From: a virus
Lineage: Duplodnaviria > Heunggongvirae > Uroviricota > Caudoviricetes
IMG/VR virus record: IMGVR_UViG_3300027125_000001
Direction: 5' to 3' (one strand)
DNA length: 22,444 bases
Shown here one piece after another: positions 2,782-19,093 of this stretch (position 1 is its first letter; the number at the start of each line of letters is the position of its first letter). Made by a program: the position numbers and the translations under genes. Under the pieces are notes generated by a model. It was given only the letters and a program-made list of their open reading frames with translations. It did no database searches and was not told the origin of the DNA.

Positions 2782-3546
2782 TCAAGATCCACTAAATGTT
2801 TTCCCAGATATAATCGAATAATGAGAATAGGAAAAATTAACAGTGGTTGATATTATAGACGAATCCCCCACAGATGCATATTTTTCGCCGGCTATACTTG
2901 AAGGAAAAGCATTATAAAAATAATACGTCTTTCTTTTGATAGGTGCTTTACCCGGGCCAGTTAGTGCATATAAGCTGCATATAATATCGCTCCGCAATTT
3001 CAAATTGTCGCGGCGATTATAAGCAACCAAACTATCGGCAGCAACATTGATCATCCATGGGCGAATTGCAGTATCCACATATGATATATTAGTCTCGAGA
3101 AAAGATATACGCAACGCATCTAATTCATTACGACCCTCAGTAAGGATACCACCCAAGTAACCAGCAGATTTTTCTACAGCAGCCCTTTTAGTTGTAATCC
3201 CGTCAGATATAAAATCAACACCCGTAGCCAACATATTTCCCAAATACCACCCATTTATTTCTTTTGTAGTTGCTGTCACAATCTCTTGACGCTGATCATC
3301 TACATCCCATGATTTTGCAGCGTCGGCCCCCTTCACGCCATATGATATTGATGGATTTGATAAAGGCTCAGACAAATATGTATTCATCACTCGAGGCACT
3401 GTCAGTTCTACAGACCACATAGTCTTGAGAGGAATTGACGTAGGCCATTTTCCTAACAAATCCAAAAAAGCAGGTATTGGTCCTTTGTCGGCGTCGGCAC
3501 CAGCTGCTAGATTAAATTTATATGGTTGAGGTTCTGGGCAATACAT
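2782..3546 (-). CDS. Tail-tube-fold protein, probable baseplate tube initiator (gp54/gp48-like)
   Basis: LRISFLET...IRPWM...KTYYFYNAFPSSIAGEKY...TTVNFSYSHY is the gp19/gp54 C-terminal signature (F.E...W...Y.F..AFP.......V.F.Y); located in the baseplate block. Confidence 0.65.
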   Translation of the reverse strand: MYCPEPQPYKFNLAAGADADKGPIPAFLDLLGKWPTSIPLKTMWSVELTVPRVMNTYLSEPLSNPSISYGVKGADAAKSWDVDDQRQEIVTATTKEINGWYLGNMLATGVDFISDGITTKRAAVEKSAGYLGGILTEGRNELDALRISFLETNISYVDTAIRPWMINVAADSLVAYNRRDNLKLRSDIICSLYALTGPGKAPIKRKTYYFYNAFPSSIAGEKYASVGDSSIISTTVNFSYSHYSIISGKTFSGS

Positions 3547-3554
3547 AATTGAGT

Positions 3555-3920
3555 TTATTCTTTTTTCAATGAGTATGCACCATTTATGAGAATGAGCATT
3601 AACCCATTAGCAGAGTTCAATCTCTTTTCGGGTTCTTTTTCGGTAGGCCGTACGTTATAGAATGTCATTATTTCTTGTGCTATTGGGTCTGTTACTTTCA
3701 TAATCGAGCCAGGAGCAGATTTATCTATATTCTTTAGCATTTGGTCGGCAGATGTCGTTAGTGTCTGTGATACCTTGTTGTAAGGACGAAATTGATTTTT
3801 GTCCTTGGTTGTAGTGATGTTCTGATGTTTACGGTCGAAATTATCAGGATTGTACCCACGATAATCCTTTTCACCTAATAATTTCACTTGATAATATGCA
3901 ACCAATTCGTTATAATTCAT
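3555..3920 (-). CDS. Hypothetical late protein
   Basis: ATG 3920 (MNYNELVAYY) is preceded by TAAGTATAAATAAGGACTAT, containing a T4-late consensus TATAAATA and an AAGGA SD-like element; the track's upstream start at 3962 overlaps the primase and is unlikely. Confidence 0.7.
   Translation of the reverse strand: MNYNELVAYYQVKLLGEKDYRGYNPDNFDRKHQNITTTKDKNQFRPYNKVSQTLTTSADQMLKNIDKSAPGSIMKVTDPIAQEIMTFYNVRPTEKEPEKRLNSANGLMLILINGAYSLKKE
3888..3916 (+). promoter_or_regulatory. Sigma70-type promoter for primase (TTGATA-N17-TATAAT)
   Basis: TTGATA at 3888-3893, 17-nt spacer, TATAAT at 3911-3916, about 30 nt upstream of the primase ATG. Confidence 0.65.
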
Positions 3921-3945: not shown

Positions 3946-4980
3946 ATGAGCGAATTTGACAATAATTTACCAGCTGATTATGTGCTTGAGAAGTTTTACC
4001 TTCATGCAGGCAAAGCTCGGCGAGTTGGGGACAAATATAACGCATCATGCCCAATATGCAGAGAAGGTAAAAGTTGGTTAAAGAAAAAAAGGCTTTACTA
4101 TTACCCAGGTTCAAATTCAATGTTTTGCCATAATTGTCAAAACTCATGGACGGCGCTGTGGTGGATTAAAGAGGTCACAGGACAAAGCCCGTCTCAAATT
4201 GTTAATGATGCCATGAAAAATTATGGATTTGATATGGGCACCGGTGGCAAATTTTTTAAGAAATTAGAGGCATCATCACAGACATACACAATTCCGGACC
4301 TACCCACCGATGCAATCAATCTGCTAGATGATAATGTAATCGATTTTTATAAAAGTGACCCTGCTGTAACGAAAGCAGTTAAGTATCTTAAAATGAGAAA
4401 ATTAGATACTGCCATAAACAGACCAAAGGCGATTTATTTTTCACACAAGGACAAATACCACGGAGATCGTATTATCATCCCATTTTACGATATTGGTAAT
4501 AAAATCTGCTTTTACCAATCTAGAAAAATAAATGACAATGACGATGGCCCAAAATATTTGTCAAAAATCAATTCAGACAAAAGCATATTCAATTTGAATA
4601 ATGTAAATAACGACATTGACTATTGCTTTATTTTTGAAGGCCCTGTAGACGCATGCTTTGTCAAAAATGGAGTAGCAGTTGCGGGAATTGCATGCACTCC
4701 AAAACAAGAGAGCCAATTAGAAACACTAAAGGCGTTTTATAAAATTGTATGGGTTTTGGACAATCCATATCAAGATCGCAATGAAGATGTTACTGATAAA
4801 TTTATTGAATTAGTAGACAAAGGGGAAACCGTATTTGTATGGCCGGCTGCGTTATCTATATATAAAGATATCAATGATATTTGCATTGATAAGAAAATAA
4901 ATGAATTTCCTTATCAAATTCTACTAAAGCATGCTAAGAACGGCATTGCTGCAAAAGCATCATACATGCAAATAAATTAA
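3946..4980 (+). CDS. gp61: DNA primase, T4 gp61-like
   Basis: N-terminal Zn finger CPICREG...FCHNC, RIIIPF...FYQSR, KYL, and TOPRIM motifs FIFEGPVDACFV and VLDN...D; 344 aa fits gp61 size. Confidence 0.92.
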   Translation: MSEFDNNLPADYVLEKFYLHAGKARRVGDKYNASCPICREGKSWLKKKRLYYYPGSNSMFCHNCQNSWTALWWIKEVTGQSPSQIVNDAMKNYGFDMGTGGKFFKKLEASSQTYTIPDLPTDAINLLDDNVIDFYKSDPAVTKAVKYLKMRKLDTAINRPKAIYFSHKDKYHGDRIIIPFYDIGNKICFYQSRKINDNDDGPKYLSKINSDKSIFNLNNVNNDIDYCFIFEGPVDACFVKNGVAVAGIACTPKQESQLETLKAFYKIVWVLDNPYQDRNEDVTDKFIELVDKGETVFVWPAALSIYKDINDICIDKKINEFPYQILLKHAKNGIAAKASYMQIN

Positions 4981-5825: not shown

Positions 5826-5875
5826 ATATTTATTTATTAGTTGCAACCATCATTTCCGTATGTTATATTTATTTA
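5826..5875 (-). promoter_or_regulatory. Late-type ATAAATA motifs in an 11-nt direct repeat (ATATTTATTTA x2 on + strand)
   Basis: ATATTTATTTA at 5826-5836 and 5865-5875; the reverse complement TAAATAAATAT faces ATG 5822, the nearer copy ending 4 nt before it. Confidence 0.5.
5841..5869 (+). promoter_or_regulatory. Sigma70-type promoter with extended -10 for the queC operon
   Basis: TTGCAA (5841-5846), N17, TATATT (5864-5869), with TG at 5861-5862; the predicted +1 falls at or next to the queC ATG (5875). Confidence 0.55.
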
Positions 5876-6612
5876 TGAATAAGGTTATTATCTTTAGCGG
5901 CGGCTTAGATTCCACAGTGCTGTTGTATGACGTCGCTTCAAAATTAGAAGAAGGTGAAGTTTTATATTGTTTGAATTTCTTCTATGGCCAAAAGCATTCC
6001 ATTGAATGTGCCAGAGCAGCTGCAGTAGTAGATCATTTGGCGGCGCTTTCGAACAACAAAGTAATTTTACATGAAATTTCGTTGAAGCATGTTTTTGACT
6101 ACTTGCAAACATCTGCATTGCTCAACGGAGAATATGACATACCAAAAGCAAAAGATGTTCTTGGAGATCCGCAGCCACTAAGTTACGTGCCTAATCGTAA
6201 TATGATTATGCTGAGCACTGCGGTAGGTTTCGCTGAAAGCACAGAATCAAATGAAGTATATTATGGAGCACAACAAGCAGATACTCTGTCGGGTTATTGG
6301 GACGCTTCTGCAGAGTTTTTGGAAGCAATTAATAGAGTTATTTGCCTTAATCGTAAAAATAGCATTGAAATTAAAGCACCTCTAATGACGATGAATAAAG
6401 AAGAAATCATTAGAAGAGGTGCAGAATTAAACGTACCATTCGAACTGACATGGACATGCTACGACCCGGTTTATATTCCGGGTGTTAAAACACTTTCATG
6501 CGGCGAATGTGTCGCATGCGCCAATAGATTACAAGGATTTATTAATGCCGGGTTAAAAGATTCCATGGAATATGCAATTTCCATTGACTATGAGAAATAC
6601 GGCATTCAATGA
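5875..6612 (+). CDS. queC: 7-cyano-7-deazaguanine synthase-like PP-loop ATPase (QueC family)
   Basis: IFSGGLDST PP-loop, YGQKHSIE, YVPNRNMIMLS, APLMTMNKEEII, TWTCY...CGECVACANRLQGF (four Zn cysteines). True start MNKVII at 5875 rather than 5755. Confidence 0.92.
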   Translation: MNKVIIFSGGLDSTVLLYDVASKLEEGEVLYCLNFFYGQKHSIECARAAAVVDHLAALSNNKVILHEISLKHVFDYLQTSALLNGEYDIPKAKDVLGDPQPLSYVPNRNMIMLSTAVGFAESTESNEVYYGAQQADTLSGYWDASAEFLEAINRVICLNRKNSIEIKAPLMTMNKEEIIRRGAELNVPFELTWTCYDPVYIPGVKTLSCGECVACANRLQGFINAGLKDSMEYAISIDYEKYGIQ

Positions 6613-7289
6613 GAATTATGAAAAGTACTGATATTTATTTCATCACAGCGACAAAAATGCACCATTACGATTTTTGGTGTAATTCCCATCTTGGAAAGTT
6701 CTTGAGAAAGGCTAAAGTCTCGGACCAGACATATGTTGCTTATAACAATAAGCAAGGCCTATCCGAAATTTACAACCATGCAATTTTGGAATGTGAGCAT
6801 GATTATGTAGTGTGTGTTCATGATGATGTCGTAATTGAAGATATTTTTTGGTTTGAAAAATTGAAAGAAGGATTTGAAAATTACGACATCTTGGGTCTTG
6901 CTGGTAGTTCTAATACAGAAATCAAATCACCGGCACTTTGGCATTTAATGTCACCTAGAGAACAATGGATGGGATTTGTGAATCATTATATTCCAAATAC
7001 AAACCAATCTTTCGCAACATCTTTTGGACCTTCCCCATCTAGATGCATCGTTATGGATGGGCTGTTTTTAGCTGCTAATAGAAAGGCACTTATGGATAAT
7101 GGTGTGCTTTTTGATCCTCAATTCGATTTCCATCATTATGATATTGATTTTTGTCTTCGCGCAAATAAAGCAGGGTTGAAAATGTCAACAGTTCCTATCC
7201 ATGTCACACACGCATCAGGCGGACTGAGTTCTACAGATAATGAAAGATGGAAAAATAGTGAAAAGAGGTTTTTAGCAAAGTATAGTTAA
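6609..7289 (+). CDS. GT-A fold glycosyltransferase (GT2-like / Glyco_tranf_2_5-like)
   Basis: YVVCVHDDVVIED (DxD-type), ILGLAGS, VMDGLFLA, FD..FDFHHYDIDFCLRANKAGLK, VTHASGG; ATGA overlap with queC. Confidence 0.85.
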   Translation: MRIMKSTDIYFITATKMHHYDFWCNSHLGKFLRKAKVSDQTYVAYNNKQGLSEIYNHAILECEHDYVVCVHDDVVIEDIFWFEKLKEGFENYDILGLAGSSNTEIKSPALWHLMSPREQWMGFVNHYIPNTNQSFATSFGPSPSRCIVMDGLFLAANRKALMDNGVLFDPQFDFHHYDIDFCLRANKAGLKMSTVPIHVTHASGGLSSTDNERWKNSEKRFLAKYS

Positions 7290-7293
7290 TCAT

Positions 7294-7914
7294 ATGTGCG
7301 GAATTTTTAAATCAACTAAATTGGAAAGATTCAATGAATTATACGACGCAAATACCGTTAGAGGGTTTAGTAGTTTTGGCGGAGTATTTCGGAGAAATAA
7401 TAAACACACTATATACAAAAGTGATGACATGGATATCAGATTCAATGCGAATGATGCATCTCTTTATCTTGGTCATCTGCGAGCGCCTACTGGGATTGGT
7501 CATACATTTACACCAATAAGATGCCATCCTTTTGAATATCGGAATTGGTTGGTTGCTCACAACGGCATCCTAACAAACCACAAAGAGCTTATTCCCGAAC
7601 ACATTCGAGACAATCATACATATGAAATAGATAGTAGTGTAATCCCGTTTCAATTGCATATCCATGGCTTTCAATGTTTTGAAAAATTTAAAGGAACGTG
7701 GGCTTGTTGGATGTATAATATTTTAACCAATCAGCTTTTTGTTACACGTTCGGATAATACTCTATTCATGGATCCAGAGACTGGGGATTTTTCTTCAACA
7801 GCTACAAATAGATGTAGTCAGAGCATCAACCCTAGAGTAGTATACGAAATTAAAGATAATGAATTCATCGAAGTCCACAGTTATCAAACCAAGCCTCTTT
7901 ATTTTATTCCATGA
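7294..7914 (+). CDS. Stand-alone class II (Ntn) glutamine amidotransferase
   Basis: MCGIF (Cys2 nucleophile), LGHLRAPT, CHPF, VAHNGILTN, IDSSVI; 206 aa with no fused synthase domain. Confidence 0.9.
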   Translation: MCGIFKSTKLERFNELYDANTVRGFSSFGGVFRRNNKHTIYKSDDMDIRFNANDASLYLGHLRAPTGIGHTFTPIRCHPFEYRNWLVAHNGILTNHKELIPEHIRDNHTYEIDSSVIPFQLHIHGFQCFEKFKGTWACWMYNILTNQLFVTRSDNTLFMDPETGDFSSTATNRCSQSINPRVVYEIKDNEFIEVHSYQTKPLYFIP

Positions 7915-8372
7915 GATGCAATGCTGGCATTGAGCCTAATATGCTATTAGATCAGCATTTAATCGCAGAGCAATCTGAATTGCTTATTGTGGATGGCATG
8001 TTGAGAAAAAATAAATTCAAAATGAAATCAAAAGTACCCAACGAATTTACGCTTGGGAAAGGACATATTTTATTTTGGACTGATAAGATTTTATACCTGC
8101 ACAAGCGACATGTCGAAATAAAAGATGAAATTATTCGCAGGGGATATAAGGTAACAGACAAGAAGTTTATCCTCGACGACTATCCAGATGAATTGCTCAA
8201 CGATTGGAGACCCCACAATAATGCAGTCGAAATAATCAAAAATCGAATTGCTGAAAAGATTTTGGCAAAAGGAGATAAAATATTTTGGCGCTATCAAGGA
8301 TTATATATTGATTCTAAAGACATCCCGCTATATATTAACAAATTAACAACATCACCACTATATTATGTTTAA
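7911..8372 (+). CDS. denV: Pyrimidine-dimer DNA glycosylase / T4 endonuclease V family protein
   Basis: MRCN...LLDQHLIAEQSEL...FTLGKGHILFWTDKILYLHKRHVEIKDEIIRRGY aligns with recalled T4 DenV (TRIN...LADQHLMAEYREL...[34 protein letters not shown]). Confidence 0.82.
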   Translation: MRCNAGIEPNMLLDQHLIAEQSELLIVDGMLRKNKFKMKSKVPNEFTLGKGHILFWTDKILYLHKRHVEIKDEIIRRGYKVTDKKFILDDYPDELLNDWRPHNNAVEIIKNRIAEKILAKGDKIFWRYQGLYIDSKDIPLYINKLTTSPLYYV

Positions 8373-8964
8373 CAAAGAAATTACACAATACGACGGCTCG
8401 CTGATTCATCAAAGATTTGCTTATAGATATTTTGGCAAGAATGTACATCCGCTTGGCAATATCATGGCATTTCGAGGATCAATGGAAGTAACAGATAATC
8501 TCGTTGACCTTGAAGATGCTCTCAAGAATGATTACATTTACAGTGAGGACGCCATTCAGTTTGTTTGGGAACTTCCAAACGTCTGCAGGTTTGGTGGAGT
8601 AAGTTTCCAACGATTGTTCGCAGCGAAAGTTGCACAGCTTCTATGGGAAGAAGGAGTGCCAGGAGTATCTATCGAAGGAGACGACATTATGGTTAACAAC
8701 GAATTTGTATCAGACCATCATTCATTGGTTCTTCCAAAAGGAAAGGCTAGTGTTTCTATTTGTCATGAAGTAAATGGTGCAAGTCTTGGACACTTAGCAG
8801 TGAATATCAGTGCAGGAGCAAAGGCACCAGCATTCGCTTACTCGACACGAGATGTATTAGGAGATAGTGATAAATTAACGAAATTTACAAATAATGTCAT
8901 TAATGAGTTTTATGTTATGATTGATGACATTTTTGTCGCAACCTCAAAGACGGCAATTCTCTAA
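8365..8964 (+). CDS. DUF366-like protein (biotin/lipoate-protein-ligase, class II aaRS-like fold)
   Basis: YDGSLIH..FAYR.FG...I.AFRGSMEV...VDLED...I.SEDA.QFVWE...FQRL matches the recalled DUF366 pattern; EGDDIMV...GKASVSI...HLAVNI mirrors the ND.....K..G.....G.N motifs of BPL/LplA ligases. Confidence 0.75.
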   Translation: MFNKEITQYDGSLIHQRFAYRYFGKNVHPLGNIMAFRGSMEVTDNLVDLEDALKNDYIYSEDAIQFVWELPNVCRFGGVSFQRLFAAKVAQLLWEEGVPGVSIEGDDIMVNNEFVSDHHSLVLPKGKASVSICHEVNGASLGHLAVNISAGAKAPAFAYSTRDVLGDSDKLTKFTNNVINEFYVMIDDIFVATSKTAIL

Positions 8965-9347
8965 TGCTATTTGATTATCTTAAAAATATCCTTTATTCGA
9001 AACAACCAGAGTTGCTCGAAGAAGAAAATGACTTTGTGCCGTTTCTCATTCAAAGATGGCTATCAATGCATTCGCCAGAAGTTACATACATTCTGAACGA
9101 AACTACCAATAGATATTGGATGGCATTGGCTGATAAGCAAGATTGGTATAATGCGTTTATGACCTCATTGCCGAGAGTAAAATTTCGTAAATTAAACTAC
9201 ATCAAGAAAGCAAAAGCGGAAAATAGCAAAGACGACGATACTGTAAAATTAATTGCCAAAAATATGGAAATTTCTGAAAGAGAAGTTCGGTTGTATTTGG
9301 AAAGAATTGATTTTAAGGTAAAAGATCTTGACATCTACAAAAAGTAA
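8964..9347 (+). CDS. gp62: Sliding-clamp loader small subunit, T4 gp62-like
   Basis: LFDYLKNI...FVPFLIQRWLSM...NE..N.Y...QDWY......LPR.KF...YIKKAK...VKLIAKNMEISEREV.LYL is the typical gp62 family pattern; 127 aa. Confidence 0.7.
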   Translation: MLFDYLKNILYSKQPELLEEENDFVPFLIQRWLSMHSPEVTYILNETTNRYWMALADKQDWYNAFMTSLPRVKFRKLNYIKKAKAENSKDDDTVKLIAKNMEISEREVRLYLERIDFKVKDLDIYKK

Positions 9348-9361
9348 CATAAATCACCCAT

Positions 9362-9703
9362 ATGGAAAATTTAGAAAAATACAGTAGCTCCGCACTTCCT
9401 GAAGACTATGAAATCAGTGAATTGTTTGGTGATACACTAGCAATTGCTTATAAAGATAATAACGGTGAAGGTCTTGTCAAGCGAGGCTCTCTGTGGGTAG
9501 ACCCAGGTGTTACCTATAACATGTGGAGAGTAGGAGAAATTATTCTCAAGGGACCCAAATGCAGCGACAATGTCAAAGTAGGAGATATGGTTCTATTTCC
9601 TAATGATCGAGGGATTCCGGGCATCAAACATAAGGGGGTCGAAGTTCGATATATTAACGAGGATAGACTATTCGGCAAAGTAAGCCTCAAAGAGGAACAA
9701 TAA
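9362..9703 (+). CDS. groES: GroES/Cpn10-like co-chaperonin
   Basis: LFGDTLAI...GLVKRGSLWV...GEIILKGP....VKVGDMVLFP..G....G...RYINEDRLFGKV follows the Cpn10 pattern (PL.D.V...G.V.A.GP....VKVGD.V.F....G.......E.DI...V). Confidence 0.78.
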   Translation: MENLEKYSSSALPEDYEISELFGDTLAIAYKDNNGEGLVKRGSLWVDPGVTYNMWRVGEIILKGPKCSDNVKVGDMVLFPNDRGIPGIKHKGVEVRYINEDRLFGKVSLKEEQ

Positions 9704-18192: not shown

Positions 18193-18834
18193 ATGGCACA
18201 AGGTATTCAAGACTACTACGACACAATCCAAAGAAAGGGATTTCAGCGAAGAAATCTCTTCCGCATTGCTGCGATCAATGGAGATGGCATTTTATCTAAA
18301 CTGGCGGCAGAGTTAACGTCTCTAGATGGTGGCATTTCAAACGCATATCTAACGACAGCCACAGTGCCAGGCCGGACTATCCAAAACGTTACCGCACCAT
18401 TTATGGGATTGGATTTTAATGTACCAGGCAACGCCAAATATGATAACAGCAACAACTGGCAAGTTACATTCAGATTGCCTGGTGATCTTTCAATTCGAAA
18501 CGCATTCGAGCAAATGAGCTACGATATCTTCGATGATGGAACATCCACGGGCTGCTATGGAGTGCCTAATAGCAGAAATATCATTACGCTAGCCTTGTTA
18601 AACATTAAGGGAGAAGCAGTAAGATACTATGATTTGATTGGTGTATATCCAGTAGCGTTTAATGGATTGTCATTTGAATTGACCGGCAATGCCGAAGTCA
18701 TGACATTCAATGCAACATTGGCATATCAATACTACCGTATCAATAAATCCAAAGTTCCTGGGGCACAAGTCATTACAGATTTCGACAGAACGACTGGCCT
18801 TACACCTGCTCTTGGTGCTGGAAACGCCTGCTAA
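18193..18834 (+). CDS. gp19: Tail tube protein, T4 gp19-like
   Basis: FQRRNLFRI...TATVPGRTI...PFMGL.FNVPGNAKY...WQVTF...IRNAFEQ...LLNIKGEAVRYYDLIGVYPV...L.FE....VMTFNATLAYQYY. Confidence 0.9.
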   Translation: MAQGIQDYYDTIQRKGFQRRNLFRIAAINGDGILSKLAAELTSLDGGISNAYLTTATVPGRTIQNVTAPFMGLDFNVPGNAKYDNSNNWQVTFRLPGDLSIRNAFEQMSYDIFDDGTSTGCYGVPNSRNIITLALLNIKGEAVRYYDLIGVYPVAFNGLSFELTGNAEVMTFNATLAYQYYRINKSKVPGAQVITDFDRTTGLTPALGAGNAC

Positions 18835-18847
18835 TACTCAACCTCAA

Positions 18848-19093
18848 TTAATACCCGTCACCACCTAAGGGCGTAGTCATCTCACGGACTACGCCCTTTA
18901 TTCTATCAAAAATCGCCTCCGCCTCTTGGATGGATTTAAATTTGATGGTTTTGCCGTTCGTAAATCGATAGACAATTTCTTGTGTCTCTCTATCGAGACG
19001 GATATTTTGTATGATAAATACCCCAGGCGAAAATCCCAAGGATGAATATCGTTCGTTCAACACTTCAAGCTTTTCACCAGGAATATAATTCAT
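18848..19093 (-). CDS. Hypothetical protein
   Basis: 81-aa ORF with ATGA overlap with the upstream gene. Confidence 0.65.
   Translation of the reverse strand: MNYIPGEKLEVLNERYSSLGFSPGVFIIQNIRLDRETQEIVYRFTNGKTIKFKSIQEAEAIFDRIKGVVREMTTPLGGDGY

Follow-up and report, generated by a model that had tools for sequence, protein, structure and literature searches.

A run of closely packed genes that starts with queC, in the DNA of an uncultured T4-like myovirus, is read here as carrying part of a 7-deazaguanine DNA-modification system of the DpdA3 type, in which QueC would draw on a separately encoded glutaminase. The window, meaning the whole stretch of DNA that was analysed, comprises 22,444 nt taken from the minus strand of a 49-kb virus record in IMG/VR (18334-40777), and the source phage has primase, baseplate, tail, terminase, sheath, gp62-like and gp31/GroES-like genes. 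The preferred reading, to which we give a rough probability of 0.6, is that this lineage has DpdA3-type 7-deazaguanine DNA modification with a split, glutamine-dependent QueC, that the DUF366 protein of the same run is a candidate part of the system, and that the glycosyltransferase (GT) and the homologue of T4 endonuclease V (DenV) encoded between them are probably mere neighbours. 7-Deazaguanine bases in DNA shield phages from restriction, and further derivatives continue to come to light. The reading would assign a large group of uncultured T4-like phages from aquatic settings to the DpdA3 branch of deazaguanine biology, with a stand-alone glutamine amidotransferase (Gat) and DUF366 as putative parts that are new relative to the published systems.

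An earlier interpretation made from the letters alone, the sequence-only reading, had joined five genes of this run (QueC, a GT-A glycosyltransferase, a glutamine amidotransferase, a DenV-like protein and DUF366) in one modification pathway. Its domain calls agree with Pfam and PHROG matches, and the five plus-strand open reading frames (ORFs) exist as tightly packed genes whose ends overlap or nearly abut. The single five-gene pathway itself is not upheld, as DenV joins the cassette in one clade only and GT occurs in four complete genomes lacking QueC, Gat, DpdA3 and DUF366.

QueC and a stand-alone glutaminase

The first gene of the run (5875..6612, + strand) encodes what its sequence marks as a genuine member of the QueC family. 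The protein matches PF06508 with 182.7 bits (cut-off 22; E 8.6e-54) over profile positions 3-209 of 210, and the QueC structure 2pg3 in the PDB at E 7.5e-22. A PP-loop of sequence SGGLDS occupies residues 8-13, and the zinc cysteines C195, C209, C212 and C215 are invariant in a 10-sequence alignment. The canonical GYPDCR loop reads GYWDAS, with GYWD replacing the usual YPDCR, a tryptophan (W) variant common to QueC of vibriophage ValKK3 and to all QueCs that travel with a stand-alone Gat, including those of QueF-encoding genomes. QueF requires 7-cyano-7-deazaguanine (preQ0). Since the variant is also found where QueF is encoded, it marks a phage subfamily of QueC that still feeds preQ0-dependent steps; its presence there and in ValKK3 led us to reject the idea that GYWDAS signals a new substrate for QueC.

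Further along the run lies a gene (7294..7914, + strand) for a stand-alone class II, N-terminal nucleophile (Ntn) glutamine amidotransferase with the N-terminus MCG (PF13522, E 6e-9; phrog_12378), which is found at no fewer than 305 loci in IMG/VR. Residues C2, R23-G24, H89-N90-G91 and D113 do not vary across 13 sequences, and we take their catalytic roles to be those known from GlmS and PurF. In both ValKK3 and vibriophage nt-1, a 202-aa ORF that starts with MCG and is annotated as hypothetical directly follows queC (L090:12717-13325 and L098:9717-10325, respectively). The ValKK3 product is an Ntn glutaminase homologue, 28% identical to the window Gat (E 6e-14). The available portions of two reports on deazaguanine in phage DNA (Hutinet et al., 2019, PMC6884629; Cui et al., 2023, PMC10516641) do not discuss this vibriophage ORF.

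By analogy, we infer that Gat is the glutaminase subunit of QueC. A fused Gat-QueC in Enterobacteria phage 9g, together with DpdA, gives deoxyarchaeosine (dG+), according to the part of the report available (Hutinet et al., 2019, PMC6884629), and because this fusion exists the prior for a Gat-QueC partnership is already high. Crenarchaeota, too, have a fused form. The equation of the split pair with the fused enzyme, made in the sequence-only reading, is retained. Structure prediction for a QueC-Gat complex gives a score of 0.41, where the best of three controls scores 0.12, and lends the partnership slight support: 58 of 80 solved complexes attain the mark used, as do 2 of 110 mismatched pairs, and scores of 0.60 or less at that mark belong to just 7 of the 80 solved complexes but to both mismatches. 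At least 91% of contacts are shared between the prediction runs, with a predicted local distance difference test score (pLDDT) of 83 or higher for the partners.

Pathway genes in related genomes

The closest large relatives of the source phage, G001 (71 kb) and G002 (58 kb), carry a QueC 86% identical to that of the window and the matching five-gene order. Each also encodes FolE, next to gp32, together with a phrog_19058 protein of 267 aa. Ten members of this family were aligned, and the AlphaFold 2 (AF2) model of the G001 protein (pLDDT 85; predicted template modelling score 0.86) finds tRNA-guanine transglycosylase (TGT), archaeosine TGT and the structure 7ui4 of DpdA, which inserts preQ0 into DNA, as its top Foldseek matches in the PDB (E about 1e-8 to 1e-7, probability 1.0). 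The phrog_19058 family is thus predicted to fold as a TIM barrel of the TGT/DpdA type. Its proteins correspond to the DpdA3 subfamily described by Cui et al. (2023, PMC10516641), and the transglycosylase of the lineage is 45% identical to that of the phages in that report. Queries with DpdA1 (from phage CAjan) and DpdA2 (from nt-1) found no match in any genome that has QueC, Gat and GT. The Pfam TGT profile (PF01702) was abandoned as a DpdA detector; it is blind even in contigs holding DpdA2 or DpdA3, and its negatives are worthless.

Complete genomes were pieced together from IMG/VR through Gat (G018, 230 kb) or through DUF366 alone (G029, 209 kb, and G030, 201 kb, both with terminal repeats). 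All three encode QueD, QueE, QueC, Gat, GT, QueF and DpdA3 and contain the DUF366-gp62 pair; FolE and a formyltransferase are additionally present in G018 and G030, G029 being without FolE. None of the three has DenV, DpdA1, DpdA2 or ArcS. G017, at 88% completeness, encodes FolE, QueD, QueC, Gat, DpdA3 and DUF366. From the clade of the window itself, only QueC, Gat, FolE and DpdA3 have emerged to date. On this comparison of gene content, the lineage appears to have a recognisable DpdA3-type deazaguanine system with genes distributed genome-wide, and we are fairly confident that QueC and Gat are part of it. The sequence-only reading had left the substrate open, and this proves to be an artefact of working on a fragment, given that relatives carry FolE and DpdA3 and distant complete genomes QueD, QueE, QueF and DpdA3.

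Published systems offer three points of comparison. The DNA of Flavobacterium phage immuto_2-6A carries 7-(formylamino)methyl-7-deazaguanine, as described in the available part of Cui et al. (2023, PMC10516641), and the order DpdA3, formyltransferase, AAA_28 kinase, QueF in G018 and G030 is that of the immuto_2-6A block. With the phages of that report the lineage thus shares this block and the related transglycosylase, together with QueD, QueE and QueC in the complete relatives and FolE in G018 and G030. It differs from them in the dispersal of its pathway genes and in its stand-alone Gat, DUF366 and GT, none of which has a tblastn match in those phages. The dG+ system of phage 9g, as outlined in the section available of Hutinet et al. 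(2019, PMC6884629), consists of FolE, QueD, QueE, Gat-QueC and DpdA1; it likewise combines a class II glutaminase with QueC, whereas the window has two polypeptides with a GT gene between them, and the lineage's transglycosylase is DpdA3 instead of DpdA1. Vibriophage nt-1 is described in the same section as holding dPreQ0, 2'-deoxy-7-amido-7-deazaguanosine (dADG) and dG+ in its DNA. Its cluster comprises QueD, ArcS, FolE, DpdA2 and QueC, and that of its close relative ValKK3 QueD, FolE, DpdA2, QueF and QueC. These two resemble the window in having, near gp31, a queC followed immediately by a stand-alone Ntn glutaminase gene, and in the GYWD subfamily of QueC (seen in ValKK3), and they differ in using DpdA2 and in having neither DUF366 nor GT.

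In the route that we propose, FolE, QueD and QueE, from genes in other parts of the genome, would make 7-carboxy-7-deazaguanine (CDG), which QueC would turn into preQ0. Gat would supply QueC with ammonia from glutamine and may push the product on to the amidine archaeosine (G+), as the Gat-QueC of 9g does. DpdA3, also encoded elsewhere, would then put the modified base into virion DNA in place of guanine, and DUF366 could serve the pathway as an ATP-dependent enzyme for tailoring or activation.

Paralogues of AAA_28, a NadR/deoxynucleoside kinase-like family, flank deazaguanine genes in G018 (18243-18959 and 227825-228511) and at L094:13505-14215 and 3111-3740. One lies after QueE and the other between formyltransferase and QueF, the latter being annotated as thymidylate kinase in immuto_2-6A. 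Two genes 3' of FolE, G018 encodes a tubulin/TubZ-like GTPase (PF00091, E 2e-17, with a TubZ-like C domain; L193:10427-11533, equal to G018 22426-23532). The island 5' of DUF366 in the same genome (L201:12846-15791) holds a 458-aa double GT2 protein, a second GT2 and a 2-oxoglutarate-Fe(II) oxygenase, and continues with a haloacid dehalogenase (HAD), a nucleotidyltransferase and an AAA_28 gene before QueE, QueD and FolE, so that glycosylation and deazaguanine genes stand together there.

DUF366, the glycosyltransferase and competing explanations

The DUF366 gene (8365..8964, + strand) encodes a protein with a biotin/lipoate-protein-ligase-like fold. It scores 81.3 bits on PF04017 (cut-off 29.9; E 8e-23) and matches PDB entry 2ddz (PH0223) by sequence at E 4e-11. 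Its AF2 model (pLDDT 90.6) also resembles 2ddz most closely in Foldseek (E 1e-12; template modelling (TM) score 0.75-0.83, or about 0.8), followed by biotin-protein ligase (BPL) and lipoate-protein ligase LplA (E 5e-6 to 1e-4, TM 0.45-0.57), which bears out the adenylate-forming ligase fold assigned by the sequence-only reading. K127 is invariant. The family is widespread in uncultured phages, with 647 homologues and at least 533 IMG/VR loci, and its cluster in the ESM Atlas counts 2,368 members, 75% of them viral; that resource returned just generic GT and DUF366 clusters. A whole-word literature search on DUF366 retrieved no paper. The sole GenBank 'phage' with DUF366, Microcystis phage MaAM05 (L001; MW495066.1, 108483-124959), was left unused owing to its bacterial-looking neighbourhood, in which DUF366 is accompanied by glyS, mtgA, fabI, fliM, secF and engB.

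DUF366 and QueC tend to occur in the same genomes. All 11 large contigs selected by DUF366 alone contain QueC, and DUF366 is present in the near-complete G017 and G018, selected by QueC/Gat, and also in G008 and G009; it is absent from five QueC-less genomes (G040-G044). In about 24 of 80 DUF366 loci, QueC/Gat, QueD/QueE or an associated AAA_28 gene lies no more than 6 kb upstream. On this genomic evidence the odds are about even that DUF366 belongs to the deazaguanine system as a candidate new component. The more specific proposal that it is an ATP-dependent adenylate-forming ligase acting on a 7-deazaguanine, for example by acylating the aminomethyl group of (d)preQ1 (7-aminomethyl-7-deazaguanine) or by activating the carboxylate of CDG, is tentative and, in our estimate, rather doubtful. 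If correct, it would imply a DNA base beyond the eight derivatives described and give a function to an orphan family of 2,000 members. DUF366 is a concrete candidate for a new tailoring step.

The second gene of the run (6609..7289, + strand) encodes a GT-A glycosyltransferase of the Glyco_tranf_2_5 family (PF13712, 41.9 bits, cut-off 27; E 1.2e-10). Its H71-D72-D73, a DxD-type motif for metal and nucleotide-sugar binding, is invariant in 14 sequences, and by this signature the protein is surely an enzyme. Among 75 further IMG/VR loci drawn from the Gat alignment, the pattern is QueC-Gat-GT in 57, Gat-GT at the beginning of a contig in 13, and QueC-Gat in the other 5. The QueC-Gat-GT trio occupies two genome positions, one between uvsX and gp41 and the other upstream of gp62.

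Several observations weigh against the preferred reading of a DpdA3-type lineage with DUF366 as a candidate part. The 49-kb record itself (CheckV completeness 25%; full genome roughly 200 kb) has no match to FolE, QueD, QueE, radical SAM, TGT, DpdA2 or DpdA3. Because it covers about a quarter of the genome, the missing folE, queD, queE and dpdA say little, and the search for these genes proposed in the sequence-only reading, empty in the record, succeeded for FolE and DpdA3 in G001 and G002 and for QueD and QueE in the complete relatives; the presence of all four in the source phage is nevertheless extrapolated from relatives. In the 71 kb of G001, FolE and DpdA3 are present, and QueD, QueE and QueF are absent. 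GT adjoins Gat in 70 of the 75 Gat-selected loci, in three arrangements, and a link of GT to QueC/Gat is possible where both occur. The co-occurrence of DUF366 with QueC, 4 of 4 genomes against 0 of 5, does not consist of independent events, as it may reflect two clades and shared ancestry. DUF366 lies directly 5' of gp62 in 76 of 80 DUF366 loci, which fits a replication-linked role. This constant position is also the starting point for an explanation by synteny alone, in which DUF366 would be a replication or sugar accessory tied to the clamp loader, only QueC and Gat would belong to the system, and common descent would account for the pattern. The hypervariable upstream side of DUF366, where GDP-sugar and GT2 genes, QueC/Gat, or QueD/QueE are found and sugar-nucleotide or GT2 genes are frequent, favours that explanation, as does a large marine clade in which QueC-Gat-GT lies some 25 kb away from DUF366. 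It accords poorly with the presence of QueC in every DUF366-selected large contig, with the absence of DUF366 from all five QueC-less genomes, and with the several distinct arrangements in which DUF366 abuts QueC/Gat or QueD/QueE, and we consider it possible without favouring it.

A pathway of four genes, in which QueC, Gat, GT and DUF366 act together and GT glycosylates and/or DUF366 acylates a 7-deazaguanine before or after its insertion by DpdA, would explain why GT so often stands beside Gat in varied arrangements and positions, why four loci have a formyltransferase gene separating Gat from GT, and why GT keeps its invariant HDD; that GT has no tblastn match in 50,697 GenBank phage records, and thus none in studied phages, would also suit it. 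We nonetheless consider it unlikely. GT homologues 43-46% identical to that of the window occur in the complete genomes G040-G043 (203-248 kb) and in G044 (73% complete), none of which has a match to QueC, DpdA3, DUF366 or Gat, although the query for each of these found its target in positive-control genomes. GT therefore does not depend on the deazaguanine pathway. In the reverse test, only 23 of the 80 IMG/VR loci closest to the window GT have QueC/Gat nearby, the commonest patterns being AAA_28-GT-gp62 (32/80) and uvsX-GT-gp32 (7/80), and bacterial chromosomes among metagenome-assembled genomes hold GTs of 36-48% identity in the absence of QueC. Neither preQ0 nor G+ offers a hydroxyl acceptor, and a literature search for deazaguanine with glycosyltransferase gave nothing relevant, with no paper tying such an enzyme to deazaguanine DNA. 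GT is thus probably a bystander, a common accessory gene with or without the pathway. The idea of a glycosylated or acylated deazaguanine base in the sequence-only reading keeps its deazaguanine DNA base and loses the part played by GT, and the hint of glycosylation that adjacency gave is corrected as an over-reading by the complete genomes. The check that it proposed, on co-occurrence of the five genes in IMG/VR, comes out in favour of DUF366 with QueC, and against GT, found in QueC-less genomes, and DenV, found in the cassette in the window's clade only. Supply of tRNA precursors, in which QueC, Gat, FolE and the other enzymes would only raise host preQ0/preQ1 for queuosine and leave phage DNA unmodified, agrees with the absence of DpdA from the record and with QueF, the maker of the tRNA precursor preQ1, in the complete relatives. 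DpdA3 in G001, G002, G017, G018, G029 and G030 makes this quite improbable, the more so as G018 and G030 have it in the block of immuto_2-6A, whose DNA is reported as fully modified in the available part of Cui et al. (2023, PMC10516641), which also treats DpdA as a signature of DNA modification. The least credible proposal, also from the sequence-only reading, is a split AsnB-like amidotransferase, in which QueC and Gat would amidate a sugar carboxylate installed by GT on DNA or virion proteins. The architecture of an Ntn glutaminase and a PP-loop ATP pyrophosphatase beside a GT is all that speaks for it, and it conflicts with the 183 bits on the QueC model, the retained QueC-specific zinc cysteines, the place of this QueC subfamily in the proven deazaguanine clusters of nt-1 and ValKK3, the QueE, QueF and DpdA3 of genomes that encode such a QueC, and the occurrence of GT without QueC/Gat.

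Two further occurrences concern GT. An AAA_28 gene also stands 5' of GT in QueC-less phages, and a GT homologue of 33% identity is found on contig QCDM01000007.1 (L339; 61 kb) of the single-cell assembly of Prochlorococcus sp. AG-355-I20.

The DenV homologue and the layout of the run

The fourth gene of the run (7911..8372, + strand; phrog_1183, E 3e-28) encodes a homologue of T4 endonuclease V, with 37% identity, 36.1 bits on PF03013 (cut-off 23; E 8.5e-9) and a match to PDB 2end at E 6e-17. It keeps a glutamate aligned with T4 Glu23. It departs from the T4 enzyme at the DNA-contact residues, with serine and isoleucine at Arg22 and Arg26, and at its N-terminus, which reads MRCNAG and lacks Thr2. 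DenV homologues occur in 1,043 phage records, mostly of T4-like phages. Within the cassette, DenV is confined to the window's clade, being absent from the L016 clade, the 75 Gat loci and the complete genomes. Its sequence and distribution indicate that it is most likely an ordinary UV-repair gene (pyrimidine-dimer glycosylase) in a variable island and a clade-specific passenger.

Within the five genes, QueC and GT share 4 bases, a gap of 4 bases parts GT from Gat, Gat overlaps DenV by 4 bases, and DenV overlaps DUF366 by 8. The DUF366 gene further overlaps by 1 base a gene for a gp62-like clamp-loader small subunit (8964..9347, + strand; phrog_225, E 1e-9), which is followed by one for a gp31/GroES-like co-chaperonin (9362..9703, + strand; phrog_3188), and the co-directional run reaches 10440 with nine ORFs. 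Because the run passes gp62 and gp31, the limit of five genes is a boundary of annotation and not of sequence. On the upstream side lies a DNA primase gene (3946..4980, + strand; phrog_47, E 1.5e-34). A sigma-70-like promoter-like site (TTGCAA, 17 nt, TATATT, with TG) stands just 5' of queC (5841..5869, + strand), and a single promoter for the cassette is plausible, with such sites not enriched in the region (20 found, 17.5 expected from shuffles). The earlier description of five genes under one promoter is thus right about the packing, wrong about the bounds and plausible about the promoter.

At least five related contigs have the identical five-gene order, with protein identities of 46-95%. 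This synteny was dropped as a sign of shared function, the flanking genes of those contigs being equally syntenic. Other genes intervene in some relatives: a faint LAGLIDADG match separates Gat from DenV at L095:8711-9586, and a phrog_314 homing endonuclease lies between GT and DUF366 at L020:4094-4978. At many marine loci QueC and Gat are separated by an unannotated ORF of about 305 aa on the minus strand.

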